DNA of 26,478 nucleotides from a bacterium (GTDB taxonomy: Bacteria; SZUA-182; SZUA-191; JAJRXT01). The translations under genes and the position numbers were made by a program. The notes below the pieces were generated by a model. The model searched no databases. It worked only from the letters and a program-made list of their open reading frames with translations, and was not told where the DNA came from. The DNA is taken from NCBI GenBank assembly GCA_024277605.1, contig JAJRUU010000168.1, forward strand, positions 1 through 26,478, written 5' to 3'. The first letter of the stretch is position 1. The number at the start of each line of letters is the position of its first letter. Below, piece after piece: positions 9,390-26,270 of this stretch.

Positions 9390-11498
9390 TTATTTGGCTG
9401 CTGGATGTAAAGTGAATTGCTTCCAAGCCTTTCGGGCAGCTCCTTCTATTGTTTCCGGCGCTTGAATTTCTGCTGCGTTCCCGGTAGCGATTATAGTAAA
9501 AAGTTCAGTGGGCAGCTCCAGCTGTTTACTATAAACCATCTTTTTGGTAGCTTGCTTTGCTCCATAAACATAAGATATCCAACTATCGGTTAGTTTGGCC
9601 TCAAGCTGCTGATTGGTATCCGGTATTATCAGCATATATGCTCCCTTATTATTGCTGGACTTAAGTACTCCGGCGGGAGATAGTTCTACCTGTGTGGGAG
9701 CTAAGTTGAAGATGATCTCAATTTCATGCTTACCGCCGCCGCTCAATATATCATTGATTATAAAATAACCGGCTTGCTTTACAAATAATACCTGCCGCCG
9801 GTGAGTGACCTTATCGGCTAATCTATGATAGCAGTAGTGCTCGGCATCGAAAAAATCATATTCGGCTGAACTTTCCCAGCTGATAATTTTATACTGATTC
9901 TCTTCATCCACCCAGAGCGCATTTTCGGCAAGCCGGTGAAACTCTTGTTCATCCACCCGGATCGTATTGTGCGAGGAGGCGCTGATAAAATGCTTGCGCC
10001 ACTTAAGCGAACCGCTGTATGTATAGGTGCCGGGGTCGGCTATAAAGTGTTGTTCCTGGGCAAACAGGTCAAAACCTAAAATATCATTATGCCCGTGCAG
10101 CCCGTATTTGCTGCAGTGCAGTGTCAGATGTATATCTTTATGGCGCATTATGTAAAACCCGGCCTGATCATATGCTTTTGATTTAATAAGGCGTTTCTCC
10201 TTAACAGCCACACTATCAAAAGCCTTTAAACTATCAATCCCCAAGAGCCAGAATGAGGCTTCCGGCAATTTGGATGTTGATTTAAACCCTGGTTTTTCAA
10301 AGAGCATCGCTCCGGCAGCCAGACAAGCCAGATGACCGTTATCCCCCTGACTCCACAACCAGCCATTATCGGCATCACCAATCATAGGGGTACTGCCGTC
10401 GGGCCTGATATAGGCCAGCACGAATTCCAGCATTTTAATTACCCGTTTTTCTATAGCCGGGGGAACTGCTATATGGTTTAGTCGGCATAGTTGGATAGCC
10501 AGAAGTAAAATTTCCAGTACCTGGCGATGATAATCGATGGATTGCTCATAATCCACTCCATCCGGGTAAATCTGTTTCTCTGTCTGGCGCCATAAGATAT
10601 CAAGCCCCCTGGCTAACCACTTGGGGCCTACCTTAAAATCAGAAAGAAAAAGCCCCAGGCAGAAAAGCCCCAAGCCGTTAGCCATATAATGGTTGCCGAA
10701 TCTACCGTAGGGATTACCCTCCAGGTTACTTTGAATATATTTTCCATGTTGGATCAGCGACTTTATTAAGCCTATTTGTATATCTATAGTAAACGCGGGT
10801 GAGTCCAGGAAAAAATAATAGGCCCGGATCCAGCTTATTGCCCGCATAGCAGCCTCCATGGCACATGTCCAGTTACTGCCCCATTCTAAAGGGTTAGCTT
10901 CCCACCAACTTTGAAGTTGCCTTACAAATTCCCGGGCGTATTTTTCATCTCCGGTATACCAGTATGCCCGACCCAATGAAATAAAATGCTGAAAGCGGGA
11001 TAGTTCCCATGATATGCGCATATCACTTGGTTTTCCCAGCCCGGCGCAATTTATGTTTAAGTAATAATCGTTCCACGACACACCGAATCTCAGGTCGCTT
11101 TTCCATTCAATATCTTTTGAGAATTTTTGGCCCGGGTATCCCAACAGATCAAATACATGCTTACAGACTTGATCCGCTTTGGCGATAGTCCTTTTAGTGG
11201 AATCCGGGTAATTCCGGCGGGCGAGTTTTACATAGATATTTCGATTATGGTGTTCAAACAGGAAATGTGGGCTTTTGCGCTGGCTTATGTGCCGGGCTAA
11301 TGCCTCGCTCTCAGAATAATTATTTTGAGTAAGCCCCAGCAGTTTTTTATCGGTGAGGGTGGACGGCTTTAGATGGGGGCCATAAAGTCTTTTAAGCCCG
11401 GTTTTGGCTTTATTTAGCAGATTTATATACTTAAGACAGCTAAAATCAACCAGTCCCAAAGCGGCAAGCTCTTCCCGGCACTGTTTAATATACCCCAT
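9390..11498 (-). CDS. Heparinase II/III-like protein (alginate-lyase-like N domain plus heparinase II/III C domain)
   Basis: 702 aa. Motifs 'WGSNWTCAMEAAMRAISWIRAY' and 'HGHNDILGFDLFAQEQHFIADPGTYTY' match the conserved cores of heparinase II/III-family proteins. Sits 12 bp downstream of the radical SAM gene. Confidence 0.7.
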   Translation of the reverse strand: MGYIKQCREELAALGLVDFSCLKYINLLNKAKTGLKRLYGPHLKPSTLTDKKLLGLTQNNYSESEALARHISQRKSPHFLFEHHNRNIYVKLARRNYPDSTKRTIAKADQVCKHVFDLLGYPGQKFSKDIEWKSDLRFGVSWNDYYLNINCAGLGKPSDMRISWELSRFQHFISLGRAYWYTGDEKYAREFVRQLQSWWEANPLEWGSNWTCAMEAAMRAISWIRAYYFFLDSPAFTIDIQIGLIKSLIQHGKYIQSNLEGNPYGRFGNHYMANGLGLFCLGLFLSDFKVGPKWLARGLDILWRQTEKQIYPDGVDYEQSIDYHRQVLEILLLAIQLCRLNHIAVPPAIEKRVIKMLEFVLAYIRPDGSTPMIGDADNGWLWSQGDNGHLACLAAGAMLFEKPGFKSTSKLPEASFWLLGIDSLKAFDSVAVKEKRLIKSKAYDQAGFYIMRHKDIHLTLHCSKYGLHGHNDILGFDLFAQEQHFIADPGTYTYSGSLKWRKHFISASSHNTIRVDEQEFHRLAENALWVDEENQYKIISWESSAEYDFFDAEHYCYHRLADKVTHRRQVLFVKQAGYFIINDILSGGGKHEIEIIFNLAPTQVELSPAGVLKSSNNKGAYMLIIPDTNQQLEAKLTDSWISYVYGAKQATKKMVYSKQLELPTELFTIIATGNAAEIQAPETIEGAARKAWKQFTLHPAAK

Positions 11499-13913: not shown

Positions 13914-13952
13914 AAAATATTAGGTGTAACCCGGATTATTTGCTGAGTTTAA

Positions 13953-14025
13953 CCCGACCTATTCATGAATTCAGGCTGGGTTTGCAAGACATCCCTTGCG
14001 AGATAAGCTTTATAAGCCAACGTCC
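13953..14025 (+). repeat. 73-bp dispersed repeat, copy A1
   Basis: cccgacctattcatgaattcaggctgggtttgcaagacatcccttgcgagataagctttataagccaacgtcc. Near-identical to 14223-14295 and reverse-complementary to 18558-18630 and 19558-19630. Contains an internal 7-bp stem hairpin ttgcaag/cttgcga. Confidence 0.9.
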
Positions 14026-14046
14026 TGAAGAAACAGGCTGTGCCTG

Positions 14047-14061
14047 CCCGAATTTTTCGGG
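14047..14061. repeat. Conserved small hairpin cccgaatttttcggg (also present, inverted, at 18454-18470 and 19224-19240)
   Basis: 6-bp stem, 3-nt loop. The same 17-mer context (gacccgaaaaattcgggtt and its reverse complement) recurs at the start of both long repeat copies. Confidence 0.7.
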
Positions 14062-14105
14062 TTAAAAAAGTATCCCTATTATAATAGTTTTCTATCAAAA
14101 AGCAA

Positions 14106-14115
14106 GGGGGGGGGG
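14106..14115. repeat. G10 homopolymeric tract
   Basis: Ten consecutive G residues between repeat copies A1 and A2, followed by caagtcccc, inside the divergent hisG / SPFH-operon intergenic region. Confidence 0.9.
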
Positions 14116-14222: not shown

Positions 14223-14295
14223 CCCGACCTATTCATAAATTCAGGCTGGGTTTGCAAGACATCCCTTGCGAGATAAGGTTTATAAGCCAACGTCC
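14223..14295 (+). repeat. 73-bp dispersed repeat, copy A2
   Basis: 70/73 identical to copy A1. Differences: catgaa to cataaa, aagctt to aaggtt. Confidence 0.9.
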
Positions 14296-14431
14296 AAATT
14301 GCGGGAGACAAAGTAATGATAATCGACTTCGGAGGGATACAGCGCCGCGTAAATAGGAGTCCGGCCTGGATTGGCGATTGTCACCGGCGGCAATCCCCGG
14401 TAACGGGATTACAGCTTACACACTGTTTTTC

Positions 14432-17459: not shown

Positions 17460-18500
17460 TTGGAAAAAGCGCTTAACGGCTGCAAGAGACTGCTTATATT
17501 ACCCCACAACAACCCGGATCCGGATGCTATCTGTAGCTCACTGGCGCTTAAATATCTGGTTAAGGAAAAGTTGGGGGTGCGTTCTCAGATAGTATTAGCC
17601 GGTATTATCGGCCGCGCTGAGAATCAAGCCCTGGTCAGGGAATTAAAGATTAAATTTACCCCGGTGAATCAGATTGATTTCAAGGCTTATAAACATATTG
17701 CCCTGGTCGATACCCAGCCGGGATTCGGCAATAACAGCCTCCCTAAACATTGTATCCCCAGCATAGTTATTGATCACCATCCGCTTAAGCGCAGCATAAA
17801 GGGAAGCTTTATTGATGTGCGCCCGCATTATGGGGCCAATGCCACCATCATCACTGAGTACCTAATGGAAAATGAGCTTAAACCGCCACCGCGTATTTGC
17901 ACCGCCTTAAGCTTCGGCATTAGCTCTGAAACCGAAGATTTGGGACGGGACGCCACGCCTCATGATGTAACAGCCTTTGTGCAGTTATTCCCCAAGGTGG
18001 CTTTAAAGACCCTATCCCGCATCAAGAACCCCAGCCTAAGCAATGAATATTACTATAACCTTGATAGCGCACTGCATAACGCCTTTGTCTATAAACATGT
18101 CATTGGCACTACATTAGGTTGGGTAAATCAACCGGATGTGGTATCCCAGATAGCGGATATGCTCTTAAAAAAAGAACGTACCAGCTGGTCCATATGCCTG
18201 GCCCGTTATGATAGTAGATTATTTGTTTCTATCAGAACTCAAAACAGGAAGGCGAAGGCCGGAAAATTACTAAGAAAGATTCTAGCCGGTCGCGGCAGCG
18301 CCGGGGGACATGACATGATTGCCGGTGGACAGGTAAACTGTAGCGGCCAGGATGAGGCGGGTTATACCAAATTAGAGCAAGAAATAATAAGCAGGTTTTT
18401 TAAGGCCTTGGGCTTTAAGCAAGAAATCCAATTAAGAAAATTTTTGCCGCCTAACCCGAAAAATTCGGGTCTTGTTATGGGCGAATCGATATTTAGTTGA
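17460..18500 (+). CDS. nrnA: DHH/DHHA1 phosphoesterase, NrnA-like (nanoRNase/pAp phosphatase)
   Basis: 346 aa. 'LILPHNNPDPDAICSS' DHH motif region, 'VIDHH' and DHHA1 'GGHDMIAGG' motif. The only start in frame after the upstream stop is TTG at 17460. The last 16 codons lie inside the composite repeat at 18451-18630. Confidence 0.78.
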   Translation: MEKALNGCKRLLILPHNNPDPDAICSSLALKYLVKEKLGVRSQIVLAGIIGRAENQALVRELKIKFTPVNQIDFKAYKHIALVDTQPGFGNNSLPKHCIPSIVIDHHPLKRSIKGSFIDVRPHYGANATIITEYLMENELKPPPRICTALSFGISSETEDLGRDATPHDVTAFVQLFPKVALKTLSRIKNPSLSNEYYYNLDSALHNAFVYKHVIGTTLGWVNQPDVVSQIADMLLKKERTSWSICLARYDSRLFVSIRTQNRKAKAGKLLRKILAGRGSAGGHDMIAGGQVNCSGQDEAGYTKLEQEIISRFFKALGFKQEIQLRKFLPPNPKNSGLVMGESIFS

Positions 18501-18630
18501 AAATTATAAATTTATCAGTCTCCTATTCCTATCCCCTTGGGCAAACAAAGTTTTATTGGACGTTGGCCTATAAACCTTATCTCGCAAGGGGTGTCTTGCA
18601 AACCCAGCCTAAATTTATGAATAGGTCGGG
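18451..18630 (+). repeat. ~180-bp composite repeat, copy 1 (hairpin + ~95-bp spacer + inverted 73-bp element B1 at 18558-18630)
   Basis: Collinear and more than 95% identical to 19221-19287 plus 19508-19630. Overlaps the 3' end of the DHH gene. Confidence 0.9.
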
Positions 18631-18833: not shown

Positions 18834-19208
18834 TTACTTTTCGGTAACAACTTGAGCTATGGCATAGTGTCTGGAATGGGATATGCTCAGGTAAATGCCC
18901 TTAATCTCCACGGTAGCTCTGTGTTTCTCCAGCTCATTATGCAATCTTACCTGGGGTTTGTTGCTATCCTTGGCATTAATAATCTCTATGTCCTTCCAGG
19001 AGATACTTCCCCTATAATCGAGGGCTTTGTATACAGCTTCCTTGGCGGCGAATTTACCTGCAAAATGTTGCTCTGAGCGGCTTTTTCCCAGACAGTAATC
19101 AATTTCCTGCTGGTTGAATACCCGGGTTATAAAAAGCTGGGCATGCTTTTTAATTAGGGCCGCTATGCGCCCGATTTCTACAATATCCACCCCCACCCCC
19201 ACAATCAT
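18834..19208 (-). CDS. acpS: Holo-[acyl-carrier-protein] synthase (4'-phosphopantetheinyl transferase, AcpS type)
   Basis: 124 aa. 'MIVGVGVDIVEIGRI', 'FAAKEAVYKAL' and 'ISHSRHYA' match AcpS conserved motifs. Confidence 0.85.
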   Translation of the reverse strand: MIVGVGVDIVEIGRIAALIKKHAQLFITRVFNQQEIDYCLGKSRSEQHFAGKFAAKEAVYKALDYRGSISWKDIEIINAKDSNKPQVRLHNELEKHRATVEIKGIYLSISHSRHYAIAQVVTEK

Positions 19209-19220
19209 ATACGGTTCCTC

Positions 19221-19630
19221 TCTAACCCGAAAAATTCGGGTCTTGTTATGGACGAATCGATATTTAGTTGAAAATTATAAATTTATCCAGTAGTGTCCGG
19301 TTAGGTTTTTGCACCAGCGGCAAAATGTCTTTTAGTTCTCTCTCCCCTCTGGGGAGAGAGTTAGAGTGAGGGGAAAACCCGGTTTTAAAATTCCCCTCAC
19401 CTTGATCCTCTCCCCCAAGGGAGAGGAAAAACAAGGAGTCTTGTGTTAGAAACTTACCGCAATTATTGACTTTTACCGTGTGCAAAAACTTGGAGCGGAC
19501 AACGCTGAAATTTATCAGTCTCCTGTTCCTATCCCCTTGGGCAAACAAAGTTTTATTGGACGTTGGCTTATAAACCTTATCTCGCAAGGGATGTCTTGCA
19601 AAACCAGCCTAAATTTATGAATAGGTCGGG
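19221..19630 (+). repeat. Composite repeat, copy 2, interrupted by a ~220-bp insertion (contains inverted 73-bp element B2 at 19558-19630)
   Basis: 19221-19287 equals 18451-18517 with 1 mismatch. 19508-19630 equals 18509-18630 with 4 mismatches. The two halves are separated by the insert at 19288-19507. Confidence 0.9.
19288..19507. mobile_element. MITE-like non-autonomous insertion (~220 bp) with imperfect ~27-bp terminal inverted repeats and a 9-bp target-site duplication (aaatttatc)
   Basis: Left end cagtagtgtccggttaggtttttgcac. Reverse complement of right end cagcgttgtccgctccaagtttttgcac (19/27 identical, terminal cag and gtttttgcac conserved). The insert is flanked by direct aaatttatc at 19279-19287 and 19508-19516. 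The uninterrupted copy 1 shows the empty site. The interior carries three GC-rich hairpins built from ctctcccc/ggggagag arms. Confidence 0.5.
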
Positions 19631-19640
19631 CTAAAAATAA

Positions 19641-20420
19641 TTACTTTAGCGGCAATATCCGGATCAAGGCTGCGGCTGCTGCGGCTGCCAGTTGATCAAA
19701 AGCGGCTGGATATTGATACACCCAGACCTTGGTTGAGGAGCTGCCCCTGCCGGTCCAGATTAACTCTCCCGTAGACATATCCCAAATCTGCCCCAGAATA
19801 GTAACCGAATAATCGGACGACCTGTTCCCGAAGGCCCAGACAAAAGACATTGAATTGTCATTTATGTTTGATATAATCACCAATTGAGGGATCATCAGGT
19901 ATCTGCAGTTTAAATAATCACCCAACTTTTTCAGAAAGTCAGCATTAACACTTAAATAGTTATAGCTACTTAGAAATTCCAGATAAGGCAGGCTTATATC
20001 TGACTGGCCGATAATGGCCTGCACCTGCTTTGGAGGAATTATAGTTATCCCGCTCTTGTTTTGCTTGAATTTGGCTAATAATATGTCGTTTGCGGTATTA
20101 CGAAAGCCTTCCATAGAAGTTTCCGTAGGCAGGGAAATCTCGGTATTTTTAATAATACGTGAGGGGGAATAAGGCGCCTCGGCAATCCTGGCGGTATCGG
20201 ATTTATTGTTTAGAGAGCTGCTACCGGCTGCCATTACTGAAAACAAGGCCAGCTTGCCCTCGATTCCTATATCAGGCTTAATCCTGTAAGACTCATCAGC
20301 CAGATGTTTAATTCCTGATGTTCCACAAGCGCCAGCCAAAAAGGTCAATATTAAACACCCAGCTATCCGCATAGTAGTTTTCATTGCCATTCCCCTACAA
20401 TTAAAGTGGTAATGTCTCAC
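19641..20420 (-). CDS. Exported protein of unknown function (signal peptide; possible lipoprotein)
   Basis: 259 aa. The probable true start is the third in-frame ATG (MKTTMRIAGCLILTFLAGAC-GTSG), 6 nt after AGGGGA, which would end the CDS at 20384. Signal peptide with an AGA|C cleavage/lipobox-like site. The Ser/Asn-rich mature part has no recognisable catalytic motif. Last gene of the carrier-protein operon. Confidence 0.55.
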   Translation of the reverse strand: MRHYHFNCRGMAMKTTMRIAGCLILTFLAGACGTSGIKHLADESYRIKPDIGIEGKLALFSVMAAGSSSLNNKSDTARIAEAPYSPSRIIKNTEISLPTETSMEGFRNTANDILLAKFKQNKSGITIIPPKQVQAIIGQSDISLPYLEFLSSYNYLSVNADFLKKLGDYLNCRYLMIPQLVIISNINDNSMSFVWAFGNRSSDYSVTILGQIWDMSTGELIWTGRGSSSTKVWVYQYPAAFDQLAAAAAAALIRILPLK

Positions 20421-20465: not shown

Positions 20466-21983
20466 CTAAGTCCCGCTTCCGTCTGTAAGGCGGCAGGGAA
20501 TGGGATTAGCTTGAGTTGCTTCAAGGAATAAATCCAGCCCCTGGCTGGTTTGTTGGCGCCTTATCTTGCCGCTGGCCGTTTTGGGCAATTGATTTACACA
20601 GACAAATTGCTTGGGCACCTTGTATGGAGCTAAGCGCTTATAGCAGAACCGCCGCAGATCTTGTAAATCCAAAGGCTTATTAAGCCCGTTTTTTAAAACA
20701 ATTTTTGCCACAGGCAACTGGCCATATTTTGGGTGATCTTTACCGTAAACCAGCGACTCATAAATCTGGGAGTACTGATTAAGCACGGCTTCAACTTCAA
20801 ACGGGAATATTTTTATGCCGATAAAATTAATTACATTCTGCTTACGCCCCACAATAGTCAAAAAACCAGTTTCATCGATTTTACCCAGATCGCCGGTTAT
20901 AAACCACCCATCCTCCAGAATAGCTTCCCGGTTTTGCCAGGGAGAGAAATAAGCATCCAGCATGCCTTTGCCTCTCACATAAACCCTTCCCACTCCGCTT
21001 GCATCTTGGTCAACAATTTTAATTTCATAATCGGGCAATATTTTGCCGACAGAATTGCGGTTATGCTGATTGGCGGAAAGATTGATAAATGGCAGCCCCA
21101 CTTCTATGATTCCATATGCCTGCGCCAATTCAAAACCAAATTTTTGAAAAAAAGCGCTGGCAGTTCCGTATGAAAGTTTTATGGTAGTGGAAACCGCTAA
21201 ACGGATACTCAGTAAAGATTCCGGGGACAGCAAATCCGAATGGGTTAACAAATCATAGTGAAAGGGTGAGGCATAGATAACGGTCGCCCGATATTTAGTA
21301 ATACTTTCCACCAGGGAATCGGGGAAGGGATGATGACAGAGAATAATAGTGGCTGCCCGGCGCAGAAAGAGCAGAATACTGACCACAAAATGAAAACTCA
21401 TGGACAAAACCCACAGAATTGAATCTGCTGAGGTTATCCGCAGACCCTTATCCGCAGCCTCGGTTCTTTGCATAATTGTTTCATGTGACAGGACGACCCC
21501 CTTACTCTTATCGGTAGTGCCGGAGCTGAACCGAATGAAGGCCGGATTGATTTTATAGTATGCTTGGGTGATTTTCCTCTTCACCTGTATCTTTTTAATA
21601 AAAAAGGTGTCGCTGGAAAGGCCGCAGCAAATAAATTTCTCAGCTCCGGCATAAGGGTAAAAATCTTTTTTAAACAGCAGAAAGTCTGCGCTAATCTCAT
21701 TTAGCACCTGCTCGATTTCTGCTGCGGTATAGTCCGCTGAAACAGGAACCGCTACTGCCGATATGGATAAAATGGCCAGGCTGGCGGCGATATAGTCAAT
21801 ACTATTGCCACAAAGTAAGCCTACCCGCTGAAAAGGGGCCACTCCCCCTTTTTTTAATAAACCGGCAATCTCCTGCGCTGCAGAAATCAATTCCGCATAT
21901 GACAGCGTACGTGTGTCTTCAATCAGGGCTGTTTTATGCGCAAAGTTCTGCGTCTCTGCTTTTATTAGTTGGAAAATGTTCAT
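20466..21983 (-). CDS. Adenylate-forming enzyme (AMP-dependent synthetase/ligase; acyl-ACP/acyl-CoA or fatty-acyl-AMP ligase type)
   Basis: 505 aa. Core motifs A3 'FSSGTTDKSKGVVLSH', A5 'YGIIEVG', A7/A8 'ITGDLGKIDETGFLTIVGRKQNVI' and A10 'PKTASGKIRR'. Start codon 3 nt after the stop of the upstream radical SAM gene. Confidence 0.9.
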   Translation of the reverse strand: MNIFQLIKAETQNFAHKTALIEDTRTLSYAELISAAQEIAGLLKKGGVAPFQRVGLLCGNSIDYIAASLAILSISAVAVPVSADYTAAEIEQVLNEISADFLLFKKDFYPYAGAEKFICCGLSSDTFFIKKIQVKRKITQAYYKINPAFIRFSSGTTDKSKGVVLSHETIMQRTEAADKGLRITSADSILWVLSMSFHFVVSILLFLRRAATIILCHHPFPDSLVESITKYRATVIYASPFHYDLLTHSDLLSPESLLSIRLAVSTTIKLSYGTASAFFQKFGFELAQAYGIIEVGLPFINLSANQHNRNSVGKILPDYEIKIVDQDASGVGRVYVRGKGMLDAYFSPWQNREAILEDGWFITGDLGKIDETGFLTIVGRKQNVINFIGIKIFPFEVEAVLNQYSQIYESLVYGKDHPKYGQLPVAKIVLKNGLNKPLDLQDLRRFCYKRLAPYKVPKQFVCVNQLPKTASGKIRRQQTSQGLDLFLEATQANPIPCRLTDGSGT

Positions 21984-21986
21984 GTT

Positions 21987-23426
21987 TTATTTTGACGGGT
22001 AATCCTGATAAATCTTTTTCAGGGCCATGATATATTTTGTACCGTAAATTATAGATTTTATTACTTCTGCAAAGGGCACCCGAACTTTATTAATCCTGAG
22101 CGGATTGCCCCTCCAACCTATGGTGTAAAGCCGGGCGAAGTGTTGGTAAAATGTTTTAATATCGAGCTTAGTGGGCAACAGGGTATGAAAGCAATCATAA
22201 AACAAATATGGGTCAGCACAGATAAAATCCGCTTTGTGCTTATACCAGAGCGCTGACCCTGGAGATGGCGAGAATACCGTAAAGGAAACCTCGGCCGGCA
22301 AAACATTAAGCACTTCTTTTTCCAGGCCCCTGAAATCCTGCAGCGAAAAGTTTGGATCGACCATAAAGGATGCGTGTAGAATTATGTCCAGTTCCCGCAA
22401 AATTGATACGGCTTTACGATTGGTTTCCACCGTGGTTCGTTTTTCATAATTACCAAGCCGTTTATCATCCATGGCTTCCAAACCGACATAAACTATACCC
22501 AAACCGACCTTTTTCCATAGCTTAAACAATTCCGGGCGGCTGATAATTGTATCGCTTCTGGCCCAGCTGACGAACTTTTTTTTTATGCCGCGCTCAATCA
22601 ACAGGTTTGCAATTTCCGTCATCCTGTTTGCATTTAAAAATGTCTCATCATCCACAAAATAAATATAATCTTCGCCAATCCCTTCAATTTCAGCTACCAC
22701 ATCTTCCGGAGTGCGCTGCAAATACTCGGAATGCATTATATAAGGCACCACACAAAAAGAACACGAAAAAGCACAGCCGTAAGATGTGCGGATGGTGGCG
22801 ATGCGGGGAAATATGGTGGATAATTTTTTCTCGGGGCTGGATGTCCACACAGAAAAATAGCGAGTGCGCTGTACTAAATCCCTGCGCGGCCGAGGTATAT
22901 CTCCGGGGCGGGGAAATTTCGCGGGTGGGGTGCTGGCTTTCACCTCAAAACCAGGATCCTTGACCGACAAGGCGACTTGTCCAAAATAGAGCGGCTCCCC
23001 CCGCTTGAAGCGACGGATGATCTCCCTGATAGCCGTTCCGCCCTCCCCGCGCACAATAATATCAATGTCCGCTATTGCATAATCCGCAGGCGCAATGGTG
23101 GCATGAATTCCACCCACAATTACCGTCGCCGAGGGGTCAATAGTCTTTGCAATATGGGCCAATTTTTTGACTATTGCAGCTTGCGTACTATATCCGGTAA
23201 GACCGATTATATGCGGTTTTTTAGCTTGCAATTCCCGCCGAAAAAGCCCAAGCGGGTCTTTCTCTAAACTTAAATCACAGATAAAAACCTGATCCTCATC
23301 CGGTACACCACCGGCCACAACTTCCAACTCTAATGGTTCCAGGTGCAGAAATTTTTTCAAATGCTCAGTCACCAGGAGTTGCGAGTGCGGTCTGACCAAG
23401 AGAATACGCAAGGGCTGATCCTGCAT
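21987..23426 (-). CDS. Cobalamin (B12)-binding radical SAM enzyme (class B), second copy in the window
   Basis: 479 aa. N-terminal B12-binding-like domain ('HIIGLTGYSTQAAIVKKLAHIAKTIDPSATVIVGGIHAT') then 'TSYGCAFSCSFCVVPY' CxxxCxxC. Confidence 0.85.
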   Translation of the reverse strand: MQDQPLRILLVRPHSQLLVTEHLKKFLHLEPLELEVVAGGVPDEDQVFICDLSLEKDPLGLFRRELQAKKPHIIGLTGYSTQAAIVKKLAHIAKTIDPSATVIVGGIHATIAPADYAIADIDIIVRGEGGTAIREIIRRFKRGEPLYFGQVALSVKDPGFEVKASTPPAKFPRPGDIPRPRRDLVQRTRYFSVWTSSPEKKLSTIFPRIATIRTSYGCAFSCSFCVVPYIMHSEYLQRTPEDVVAEIEGIGEDYIYFVDDETFLNANRMTEIANLLIERGIKKKFVSWARSDTIISRPELFKLWKKVGLGIVYVGLEAMDDKRLGNYEKRTTVETNRKAVSILRELDIILHASFMVDPNFSLQDFRGLEKEVLNVLPAEVSFTVFSPSPGSALWYKHKADFICADPYLFYDCFHTLLPTKLDIKTFYQHFARLYTIGWRGNPLRINKVRVPFAEVIKSIIYGTKYIMALKKIYQDYPSK

Positions 23427-23441
23427 TAACAGCCTCCCATC

Positions 23442-24656
23442 TTATTCTGTTTTAGCATAATGATAATTCCCATGCTTAACCCAATATGCGGCAGCCTGTC
23501 CCGCCTGTTCCCCCAAAACCATACAGGTTCCCATAACCCTGGTAGAGGCATAAGCCTCATGCGAAACGGAAATAATCCGTCCGGCACATAAAAGATTGTG
23601 GATATCTTTAACTTTCAGACAGCGAAAGGGGATCTCATAATAATCCCCGGCTTTTAGATATTTATAAAGCGTGCCCTTGTTTTTGTCCCATATTTCTATC
23701 GGCCAGGAATTCTTCAGCACCCCATCCTGAAATTTCCTTGCCCCCAGAACATCATCTTCGGTGAGCGTGAACTCCCCGCATATTCTCCGGCTTTCCCTGT
23801 CCATAACCCCCATTGAACTTCCGGCAATATAAGCAGCTTTGAAGGCCGACAGCCTGCGGCTTAAATAGCCAGTGGCATCTATGGCGTATTGCCGGGCTTC
23901 TTGCTCACGCTCAGCGCTACCTGCCCCATTAATGCTTAATTTGCAATAACCCTCATCCGGCGCATCTCCAGGGCTGTAACTTGAAAACCTTAAGACAGGG
24001 GGCAAAATATTCTCTTTCACCGCCAGGGCCAGACAATAAGGGACTTTAATCGACAACATCGCATCCTGATCCCGCAAGCCTTTTAATAAAATGGTGTAAG
24101 CCGCAAGTTGTATTTCATGTGCCGCTGATATATCATAAGCGGCTCCAGCCATGACAGACACCTCGCCATTGCCGGTACAATCGACTACCGCCTCGGGATA
24201 TATATCGTACTGTTTGGCCGAATGATAGACTGAGAGCCTATTAATCGCCTCTCTATTTTTACCTACCCCAATTGCGGTTGTGTTTAATAGAACATTTAAA
24301 TTTGACTCACCCAGACACAAAGAACTTAAACCATATTGCAGGGCAAACCAGGAATAAGGCAGGGCAAAAACCTTCCCCAGCCGGGTAACTTTTTTTTGCG
24401 GTGATAATTTATTTAAAATACTTACTATTTCTCTTACAATCCCCCCATTCAATGTTTCACTGGGCCAGGCCTTGCCGTTTAAGTATAAGCCGCAAATATA
24501 GCGTAACATTCCCCAGCCGCCCACACCACCCAGAACATTTTGTTTTTCCAATAAAATGGTGCGGGCGCCATTGCGGGCTGAGGCTAGTGCGGCTACTACC
24601 CCGGCAACGCCCCCGCCAACCACTAAAACATCACAATGGGTATCTTGGGTTAACAT
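23442..24656 (-). CDS. FAD-dependent oxidoreductase (PF12831-like)
   Basis: 404 aa. N-terminal '[36 protein letters not shown]' dinucleotide-binding fold. No WxWxIP halogenase motif seen. Confidence 0.78.
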
Positions 24657-24681
24657 ATCTTTTTAGTGAACAAAATCGGGC

Positions 24682-26013
24682 CTACAATCTGTCGATTAAG
24701 CCTCTTTCAAGCAGATCGACCTCTTCATCCGCTAACAATCCGTCAAGCCAAGTGATAATTGCATTTAACTGCCCGTTAGATGAGTTAAAAAATATCCCTA
24801 ACCCCGGCGGCACAGGAATCCGCGGCATATGAAAAATGTTTTTGATGTTCGCCCCCAGTAAATCTGGAAAGCGGTATGAACTTTTCCCCACATGGGAAAA
24901 GCAGAATGAAGCTATATTTCCACCAACCGGCAATTGGAACAGCTTGTTTAAAACAGGCAAAGGGGCAATTCGCAGCAGGGCGGAAGCCGCAAGCAGGTTA
25001 GCCGGAATCTGTGACTGCACCTGTTCGTACATCTGTGCTTTTATTTCCTTTAACAAGAGCTCCCTGCTTTTTAAGGTATCCACATTAATCTGGAAGAAAA
25101 ACATGGAAACATAGTTAAAGAACAATTCCTGTCTTATATCCTTTGCCGATCTCATATCCACCGAAACCGGAACCATATAGCTCTGGCCGGAGGCGCCCTT
25201 ACTTTCAAAAAACTCATGCATGGTTTGGACTACTGCGGCAAACAAATACGGCATTTCCATTAAATATCCCGCTACGGCATAAGCATTCTCATAAATCTTT
25301 TCGGTTTGCTCCCGGTCAAAGCAGATCGAACGAAACCGGAAACCCTTTTTTACCTCTGAATGTGGGAGCGGCAAATTCCTTACGGAGGTTTTGGAAAGGG
25401 CGATTAATCTACGGTTAATAGTTTTACCGGCAGCAAATTTATGCTTCCAGTTATCAAGATCAGCGGAGGCGGTTAAACAAACCCCCTTGGTAACTGCAGG
25501 ATCGCCGCCATCAGCAAAATATTGTTGGAATAAATCTAAAAATGCTTCTGCACCCCGGGCATCAAGCAGCCGATGATCAAAGGTCATGGCTAAACAACTT
25601 TGCCGGTCTTTGGTATAGACAAGATGAAAGGCTAAATGTTCATTTTTCCTTTTAAAGGGGCGGTTACTGCCCTCTTCCATCACAGATAACACGCTTTTTG
25701 GGGCGGCTGAATTTTCCAGCCGGTAAATATTAAGGTTCAGACCATTTTCAATATATTTTTTGGGAATTCGCCAATAGGGGGCCAGGGTATAATCGCGGGC
25801 CACCTGCCCTTGCACCACCGGAAATTCCTTGAGGAACCGGCTTAGGTAACTGCGCACCCGGGCCTCATCAACTTGACCATCCAGCATGAACACCAGTTGC
25901 GAGGCATTGCCCGCCACGGTTGATTTTTTTATTAAATAATCTATAACGCTCATTATCCAATCGAAGCCGGATAAATAGCGCCTGTTCTTGGATGCCAGGA
26001 CTGTCAAATTCAT
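24682..26013 (-). CDS. Hypothetical protein; candidate condensation/CAT-like (HxxxD) acyltransferase
   Basis: 443 aa, a size typical of stand-alone condensation/PapA5/WS-DGAT-type domains. 'FDHRLLDARG' at about residue 145 resembles the HHxxxDG active-site motif (second His and Asp retained) at the expected position. Located between the ACP and FAD oxidoreductase genes, with 5- and 25-bp gaps. Confidence 0.4.
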   Translation of the reverse strand: MNLTVLASKNRRYLSGFDWIMSVIDYLIKKSTVAGNASQLVFMLDGQVDEARVRSYLSRFLKEFPVVQGQVARDYTLAPYWRIPKKYIENGLNLNIYRLENSAAPKSVLSVMEEGSNRPFKRKNEHLAFHLVYTKDRQSCLAMTFDHRLLDARGAEAFLDLFQQYFADGGDPAVTKGVCLTASADLDNWKHKFAAGKTINRRLIALSKTSVRNLPLPHSEVKKGFRFRSICFDREQTEKIYENAYAVAGYLMEMPYLFAAVVQTMHEFFESKGASGQSYMVPVSVDMRSAKDIRQELFFNYVSMFFFQINVDTLKSRELLLKEIKAQMYEQVQSQIPANLLAASALLRIAPLPVLNKLFQLPVGGNIASFCFSHVGKSSYRFPDLLGANIKNIFHMPRIPVPPGLGIFFNSSNGQLNAIITWLDGLLADEEVDLLERGLIDRL

Positions 26014-26018
26014 AAAGC

Positions 26019-26270
26019 CTAAAGCCTTTTATTGACATAGGAAGCTAAAGCTGAGATTGTTTTAATATCTTCACGGGTTAAACCTGATTCTAGTAATTGC
26101 AAATTAAAATTGCTTTCAATAAACACAAATATCTCAACTAAGCCCAGAGAATCAATCCCCAGCTCAGGCAAAGGGGTCTGTGCCGTAATTGTGCTTTTAT
26201 CCAGCGACATTATATCGGTGACGGCTTGAATTAATTTTTCTTCTATTTCTTCCAAACTCATTTTATTCAT
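26019..26270 (-). CDS. Acyl/peptidyl carrier protein
   Basis: 83 aa, acidic. 'LGIDSLGLVEIFVFIE' with the phosphopantetheine-attachment Ser in the DSL context, followed by the helix typical of ACP/PCP. Confidence 0.8.
   Translation of the reverse strand: MNKMSLEEIEEKLIQAVTDIMSLDKSTITAQTPLPELGIDSLGLVEIFVFIESNFNLQLLESGLTREDIKTISALASYVNKRL

Follow-up and report, generated by a model that had tools for sequence, protein, structure and literature searches.

Several families of bacterial miniature inverted-repeat transposable elements (MITEs) have structured cores, including the Correia elements, RUP, ERIC and Nezha. They are short and noncoding, lie between genes, carry inverted-repeat ends, are flanked by a target site duplication (TSD) and form a long stem-loop when single-stranded. 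We know of none among them that has BoxC/TM motifs as its core. Here we analyse a 220-bp element which resembles these families in all the points mentioned. It lies in a contig of 26,478 nucleotides (JAJRUU010000168.1, assembly GCA_024277605.1; the whole stretch is hereafter called the window) from a bacterium of the GTDB lineage SZUA-182. We regard it as highly probable that the 220 bp are a non-autonomous, IS4Sa-like MITE of the IS4 family of insertion sequences (ISs), which sits inside another repeat. From Correia, RUP, ERIC and Nezha it differs in the transposase family and in the length of the TSD.

Regarding the ends and the core of the element, two described systems come closest. The IS4Sa row in Table 1 of De Palmenaer et al. 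(2008, PMC2266710) lists ends of the form CA------T, a length of 1150-1750 bp and direct repeats of 8-10 bp, and from the same paper we took the Y-(2)-R-(3)-E-(6)-K signature as the criterion for the IS4 family. The widespread BoxC/PIT motif is laid out as a C-stem, a loop, a G-stem, a second loop and a mirror G-rich third strand; it was described as not associated with transposons, phages or plasmids and as having no transposase remnants nearby (Holder et al. 2015, PMC4666352). Its origin was called unresolved and its means of spread unknown (Holder et al. 2015, PMC4666352), and no stable triplex was detected in vivo in Escherichia coli (PMC4666352).

The element interrupts one copy of a host repeat of about 180 bp. 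Copy 1 of this repeat (18451-18630, plus strand; repeat search and alignment) is continuous, while copy 2 (19222-19640, plus strand; repeat families D1 and D4, alignment) is split into 19222-19287 and 19508-19640 by 220 extra bp at 19288-19507 (plus strand). The sequence aaatttatc stands perfectly duplicated on both sides of the insert, with its left copy at 19279-19287 and its right copy at 19508-19516, and occurs a single time in copy 1 (18508-18516), which represents the empty site. Once the 220 bp and a single aaatttatc are taken out, copies 1 and 2 form a gapless alignment of about 180 bp that has 6 mismatches. A first-pass annotation made from the sequence had already given these insert coordinates, the 9-bp duplication and the empty copy, and all of them check out. 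The insert is MITE-sized, carries no transposase gene and is too short to hold one.

The ends of the insert are imperfect inverted repeats of 26-42 nt with complementarity reaching about 40 nt (cagtagtgtccggttaggtttttgcac... with ...gtgcaaaaacttggagcggacaacgctg). Local alignment of one end against the other gives a score of 26, well above the null of 11.7 +/- 2.3 from 3000 equally spaced pairs of 50-mers taken from the window, two of which reach 26; the inverted repeats perceived in the first pass are thus confirmed. The left terminal repeat (19288-19329, plus strand) has a 26-nt core at 19288-19313, CAGTAGTGTCCGGTTAGGTTTTTGCA, which matches the terminal consensus of the family described below at 20/20 specified positions. 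This core is identical at 26/26 positions to element ends in five metagenome loci (L118, L077, L059, L054, L045) and at 25/26 positions to the left end of an IS in a sixth (L008). The right terminal repeat (19468-19507, minus strand) reads CAGCGTTGTCCGCTCCAAGTTTTTGCAC... in reverse complement and deviates from the consensus in the GGTTAGG block and has one extra base.

The same ends are common in public metagenomes. A first search pattern, composed of the positions common to both insert ends, was scanned against IMG/VR, and a refined pattern, CAGNNNTGTCCGGTNAGNNNNTTGCA, was scanned against IMG/VR and the JGI metagenomes. The family so defined has the terminal consensus CAGNNNTGTCCGGTTAGGNNNTTGCA; in the JGI metagenomes at least 120 stretches match the refined pattern, and IMG/VR holds, among others, a 303-bp element (L028:8882-9184) that has both ends and is flanked by the 9-bp duplication AATAAGAAT. 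Pairing of inward-facing ends across all loci, among the matches listed, yielded two size classes. The short class consists of at least 23 elements of 64-313 bp, which have the ends of the 220-bp element and other interiors; an exact 9-bp TSD flanks 12 of them and a TSD with one mismatch 5 more. The long class consists of about 17 elements or more, of 1288-1351 bp, and the full-length copies examined encode IS4-family DDE transposases of 388-389 aa.

The clearest autonomous relative is a complete IS of 1348 bp (L130:1069-2416) with both inverted repeats, the 9-bp TSD attttcatt and one open reading frame (ORF) of 388 aa. The predicted protein scores 199.8 bits on the NCBIfam model NF033592 'IS4 family transposase' (cut-off 115) and carries the Y-(2)-R-(3)-E-(6)-K signature as YKLRWNIEIFFGWWK. 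A second locus, L052, likewise encodes its transposase in a single unframeshifted ORF (388-389 aa in the two loci), with 194 bits on NF033592 and the signature YKLRWTIETFFKWWK. In the IMG/VR locus L008, an ORF begins 138 nt after the IS left end and runs to the end of the contig; it has 605 homologues at E <= 1e-10, the longer of which pass the NF033592 cut-off and match Pfam DDE_Tnp_1. The 165-aa transposase fragment of L008 itself gave nothing in a Pfam scan, and its assignment came via NCBIfam and the longer homologues. In L118, tblastn detects the N-terminal part of the transposase from 135 nt into the element onwards. The terminal consensus stands beside an IS4-family transposase in L008, L118, L130, L052, L087 and others. 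L026 and L025 were tried as the autonomous reference and rejected, being degenerate or truncated IS copies without clear TSDs. Three follow-up checks proposed with the first-pass annotation, namely for elements bounded by the same termini, for 9-bp TSDs at other copies and for a full-length IS with matching terminal repeats, have therefore all turned out positive. Taken together, the TSD, the empty site, the inverted repeats and an IS4-type family with recurrent 9-bp TSDs bear out the earlier view of a transposase-mobilised, non-autonomous element nested in a repeat.

Compared with the described IS groups, the family fits IS4Sa in each of the listed DNA features. Its ends begin with 5'-CA and have T at position 9 (CAGNNNTGT), as against CA------T in IS4Sa; the autonomous form measures 1288-1351 bp, i.e. 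1.29-1.35 kb, within the 1150-1750 bp of IS4Sa; and the direct repeats of 9 bp (those of the window, of 12 short elements and of the complete IS of L130) lie within the 8-10 bp of IS4Sa as well as within the range of about 8-13 bp of the IS4 family at large. The single-ORF DDE transposase with YREK signature and an NF033592 score well over the cut-off shares the characters of IS4. In comparison with plasmid transposases of PLSDB, the autonomous relatives show 23-31% identity, the nearest being IS4Bsu1-like and ISRel1-like. Since the nearest plasmid-annotated transposases are that distant, the IS group to which the element belongs is undescribed or at least unnamed; it is widespread in the environment, and its fit to IS4Sa is one of DNA features, not of phylogeny. 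The 13 exact TSDs, including that of the window, are 72% A+T, with A at position 1 in 9/13 and T at position 9 in 10/13, and this may reflect a target preference that is weakly palindromic.

A second copy of the very same element came to light by its translation. The minus strand of the insert is open, and the only ORF across the element (107 aa, 19264-19587, minus strand) has no Pfam match and a sole database relative, P0001, among about 5.8 billion predicted proteins and 1.84 billion cluster representatives searched with HMMER. P0001 is an 85-aa ORF on a different NCBI contig of 10.7 kb and is 88% identical over 58 aa. These 58 aa run from the right terminus through both triplex motifs discussed below, and the N-terminal flank is unrelated. 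Judged from these sequences, P0001 marks a second copy of the MITE at another site, so that the search for further copies suggested earlier found one with a different flank. The translation at the right end (SVVRSKFL) is identical there, and the P0001 copy very probably carries the same variant right end; the variant would then predate both insertions and was presumably tolerated. Both the 107-aa ORF and P0001 are almost certainly spurious gene calls, and they may serve as a warning to annotators.

Several points weigh against the interpretation as a mobile IS4-type MITE. The right end (CAGCGTTGTCCGCTCCAAGTTTTTGCA) is off the family consensus at 5-6 positions plus an indel, and a consensus search of the window did not pick it up even with up to 3 mismatches. 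The empty site is a paralogue and not an orthologous allele. Within the 26.5 kb of the window there is no transposase and no second element end. P0001 is the only other copy of this MITE lineage in the protein databases searched; a scan of the GTDB species representatives with the translated MITE found no copy, just matches to the TM motif in two Verrucomicrobia metagenome-assembled genomes (MAGs), and no element with the same core occurs among the metagenome matches listed. Because just one other copy was found, amplification of the lineage has been modest or is poorly sampled. Moreover, the long ISs on metagenome contigs are mostly without TSD: among the matches listed only one has an exact 9-bp TSD, three of the others could not be scored because they reach contig ends, and the rest have at least 3 mismatches. 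We assume that chimeric assembly across multi-copy repeats accounts for these TSD-less copies. The first-pass annotation had called the element recently mobile. This is not established: the TSD is perfect, but the second copy is just 88% identical (translated, 58 aa), the right end is degenerate and the window holds no transposase.

In the core of the element, the first-pass annotation had described three consecutive hairpins made from the same arms. Three hairpins are indeed present, ctctctcccc/ggggagagag at 19338-19360, gtgaggggaa/ttcccctcac at 19366-19400 and cctctccc/gggagagg at 19407-19426; the middle one, however, does not derive from the arms of the outer pair, but from two G-rich third strands, in that GTGAGGGG pairs with the complement of GGTGAGGGG. 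Each outer hairpin is part of a triplex-type motif in BoxC/PIT/TM style, in which a hairpin is joined by a mirror third strand rich in G. Motif 1 (19338-19373, plus strand) reads CTCTCTCCCC-tct-GGGGAGAGAG-ttaga-GTGAGGGG, and motif 2 (19393-19426, minus strand) reads CCTCTCCC-ttgg-GGGAGAGG-atcaa-GGTGAGGGG with 0 mismatches in stem and triads. As the two motifs converge, their third strands pair with each other and give the middle hairpin. We scanned the 26.5-kb window with a custom motif finder following general ITxF rules (stems of 6-15 nt with at most 1 mismatch, loops of 1-6 nt, G.G-C and A/T.A-T triads), and obtained exactly 2 matches, on opposite strands and both inside the MITE. The three hairpins are thus better described as a convergent inverted pair of predicted BoxC/PIT/TM intrastrand-triplex motifs.

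The likeness to BoxC/PIT/TM_ECO of E. coli comprises the stem-loop-third-strand layout, the eight perfect triads of motif 2 and the intergenic site. In E. coli K-12, the hrpB-mrcB spacer holds a convergent pair of 86 bp with the same layout as the convergent pair of about 89 bp in the MITE. Yet, as judged by inspection, the MITE motifs depart from the strict TM_ECO pattern CCCTCNCCC-N3-6-GGGNGAGGG-N3-GGGNGAGGG, which has 9-nt stems and a 3-nt second loop (PMC4666352). The stems of the MITE are of 8-10 nt and in a shifted register, those of motif 2 (CCTCTCCC/GGGAGAGG/GGTGAGGG) being of 8 nt, and the second loop is of 5 nt. A further difference is that the MITE pair lies inside IS4-type inverted repeats with a TSD, whereas no inverted repeats other than the pair itself flank the hrpB-mrcB pair, the sole E. 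coli pair examined. Motif 2 has counterparts in the two Verrucomicrobia MAGs (91-95% identity over 38-45 nt) and in a related genome (GCA_024276125.1, L003; 91% identity over 35 nt). In that genome a MITE-like element of about 225 bp (JAJRXT010000079.1, 8293-8518) has the ends CTAGTGTCNTGTCAANTTTAA and a divergent triplex-type pair, with no clear TSD seen. On the same L003 stretch, another palindromic MITE-like element, the third of this kind, lies at 10760-10960, just downstream of the orthologue of the 259-aa gene that neighbours the MITE in the window; its ends are tatacaacccaa... and its core is gtcattctgaacgcagcgaag...cttcggcctcagaatgac.

The whole insert is predicted to fold as one long stem closed by its ends, with -98 kcal/mol for plus-strand RNA, -93.5 kcal/mol for minus-strand RNA and -51 kcal/mol for DNA, each at a z of about -7.5 against shuffled sequences (-7.6 for plus-strand RNA). 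So stable a fold on either strand would suit an element that is chiefly a structured RNA or a transcription signal, and whose ends are the base of an RNA stem. Its location is also compatible with such a role. The insert sits between an ORF of 259 aa (19641-20420, minus strand) and acpS (18834-19208, minus strand; PF01648), as first noted, and the host repeat fills almost wholly the gap between these two same-strand genes, so that read-through transcripts would include the element. However, both strands fold equally well, in the manner of a DNA palindrome and not of a strand-specific RNA, and the ends match those of transposase-associated ISs. Rfam, searched at gathering and permissive thresholds, gave no match to the insert and returned only tRNA-Glu and sub-threshold microRNA and whalefall-1 noise. 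No terminator-like site was found inside the MITE, no T-run follows any of the hairpins, and PIT/BoxC elements were without promoter or terminator activity in E. coli (work cited in PMC4666352). For these last reasons the earlier idea that the stacked hairpins terminate or insulate transcription before acpS is unsupported, and we consider a primary role as RNA or transcription signal very improbable. The MITE may have an incidental effect on read-through transcripts into acpS.

The polarity of the event may also be questioned, as the 220 bp might be original to the host repeat and copy 1 might have lost them by slipped-strand or illegitimate recombination between the aaatttatc repeats. Such a deletion leaves one repeat copy, as is found in copy 1, and a paralogue is the sole available empty site. 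The two partial copies of the host repeat do not span the target site and are neutral in this respect. Nevertheless, deletion from copy 1 is very unlikely, because both limits of the segment fall exactly on the termini of a large, transposase-associated IS4-type family, other members of which have 9-bp TSDs at unrelated sites. Besides, the P0001 copy has a different flank right outside the same terminus.

Motifs of the TM type are not confined to the 220-bp element and its second copy; Microcystis and Enterobacter have hundreds of them. TM-type motifs or hairpins occur in complete short elements with the same ends (L101, L120, L069, L139, L023) and in same-ended elements truncated or decayed at one end (L033, L070), so that at least six other same-ended MITEs carry them. 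In L033 (7008-7273), L070 (about 1500-1689), L139 (849-1123), L069 (3383-3573), L120 (902-1088) and L101 (2102-2280) the cores hold motifs of the CCCTCTCCC/GGGAGAGGG/GGTGAGGG type, often as inverted pairs, and L069, L120 and L101 are flanked by exact 9-bp TSDs. Under the strict definition there are 2 motifs in 5.1 kb of short elements and 8 in 854 kb of surrounding sequence, one of the latter falling in the MITE remnant of L070; this corresponds to an enrichment of about 40-fold, which was calculated post hoc and from small numbers. Between the TM-bearing MITEs, the ends and the TM segments are the only parts that align, which would fit repeated capture of the core as well as ancient divergence. 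That the self-propagating unit should be the BoxC/TM palindrome of about 89 bp itself, landed within or flanked by decayed IS4 ends, is scarcely credible: cores that align at ends and TM segments only are in its favour, as are near-identical TM motifs without these ends in the two Verrucomicrobia MAGs, in the L003 element with its other ends and in E. coli, but TSD and empty site bracket the IS4-type termini and not the palindrome, and P0001 shares right end, subterminal sequence and core as one unit, so that this proposal may explain how the cargo entered the MITE and not the present insertion event.

We tentatively propose, with somewhat less than even confidence, that BoxC/PIT/TM palindromes are cargo of IS4-family MITEs and are hence moved by transposases in trans. 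If this were true, TM palindromes would perhaps have spread between genomes and phyla by this means. In the window the proposal has an example at the level of a single event, in which a convergent TM pair arrived at a new site and a 9-bp TSD was formed. In the open-access literature we found no paper linking triplex motifs or BoxC to MITEs; only PMC4666352 itself was returned. The MITE as such is routine and explains the 220-bp indel between two repeat copies. What is noteworthy is the link of BoxC/TM triplex motifs to transposase-mobilised elements, by which one route of their dispersal becomes directly testable.

Transposition in the IS4 family follows cut-and-paste chemistry. In the mechanism which we envisage for the 220-bp MITE, a DDE/YREK transposase of 388-389 aa, supplied by an IS of about 1.3 kb elsewhere, would bind the terminal repeats of about 26 bp (CAGNNNTGTCCGGTTAGGNNNTTGCA) and excise the element. 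The MITE would then be inserted at a 9-bp staggered cut in the target aaatttatc of the host repeat of about 180 bp, and gap repair would produce the 9-bp duplication. Its interior would travel as cargo, consisting of the convergent pair of G/C-rich purine-motif triplex motifs with three stacked hairpins, and this pair would let the single-stranded element fold as one long stem. One might speculate that the TM pair favours cruciform extrusion, bringing the MITE ends together. Mobilisation in trans by a transposase of the L130 type is inferred, as are the origin of the cargo and whatever influence the element may have on the neighbouring genes.

The window has about 45% G+C and is an ordinary chromosomal contig. 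The neighbourhood of the MITE comprises genes for HisG, an SPFH-domain protein, Mdh, Ndk, a MobA-like nucleotidyltransferase, a DHH-family protein, tRNA-Glu and AcpS, and further those for the conserved 259-aa protein, an acyl-CoA ligase, two B12-radical-SAM enzymes, an FAD oxidoreductase and an acyl carrier protein (ACP). The window (20466-26270) and L003 (1-10744), the latter from a related MAG, share a conserved gene cluster that encodes an AMP-ligase, a B12-radical-SAM enzyme, an FAD oxidoreductase, an ACP and a protein of 443 aa in which Pfam recognises no domain, and in L003 ketosynthases and a methyltransferase lie upstream of it. The conserved cluster looks like an unusual lipid or polyketide pathway. 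From the radical-SAM/ACP/FAD-oxidoreductase genes one might guess at an anammox planctomycete as the host, but this is not supported: the ACP of the window is only weakly similar to any solved ACP, and no link to the solved anammox ACPs was found.

The host repeat has four full or partial copies within 6 kb. Besides copies 1 and 2 (18451-18630 and 19222-19640), there is an inverted, internally different copy at 13948-14064 and an inverted partial copy at 14223-14297. The left end of the repeat is a terminator-like hairpin. In the shorter inverted copy both termini (taacccgaaaaattcggg ... atgaataggtcggg) are retained and the part between them differs, which suggests that the host repeat is another mobile or recombining repeat. 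The last 16 or so codons and the stop codon of the ORF for the DHH/DHHA1 protein (17460-18500) lie inside copy 1, and the repeat may have replaced the original 3' end of this gene. Between the two partial inverted copies, the intergenic stretch 14106-14115 is a run of about ten G, which may be prone to slippage or may have arisen as an error of assembly.

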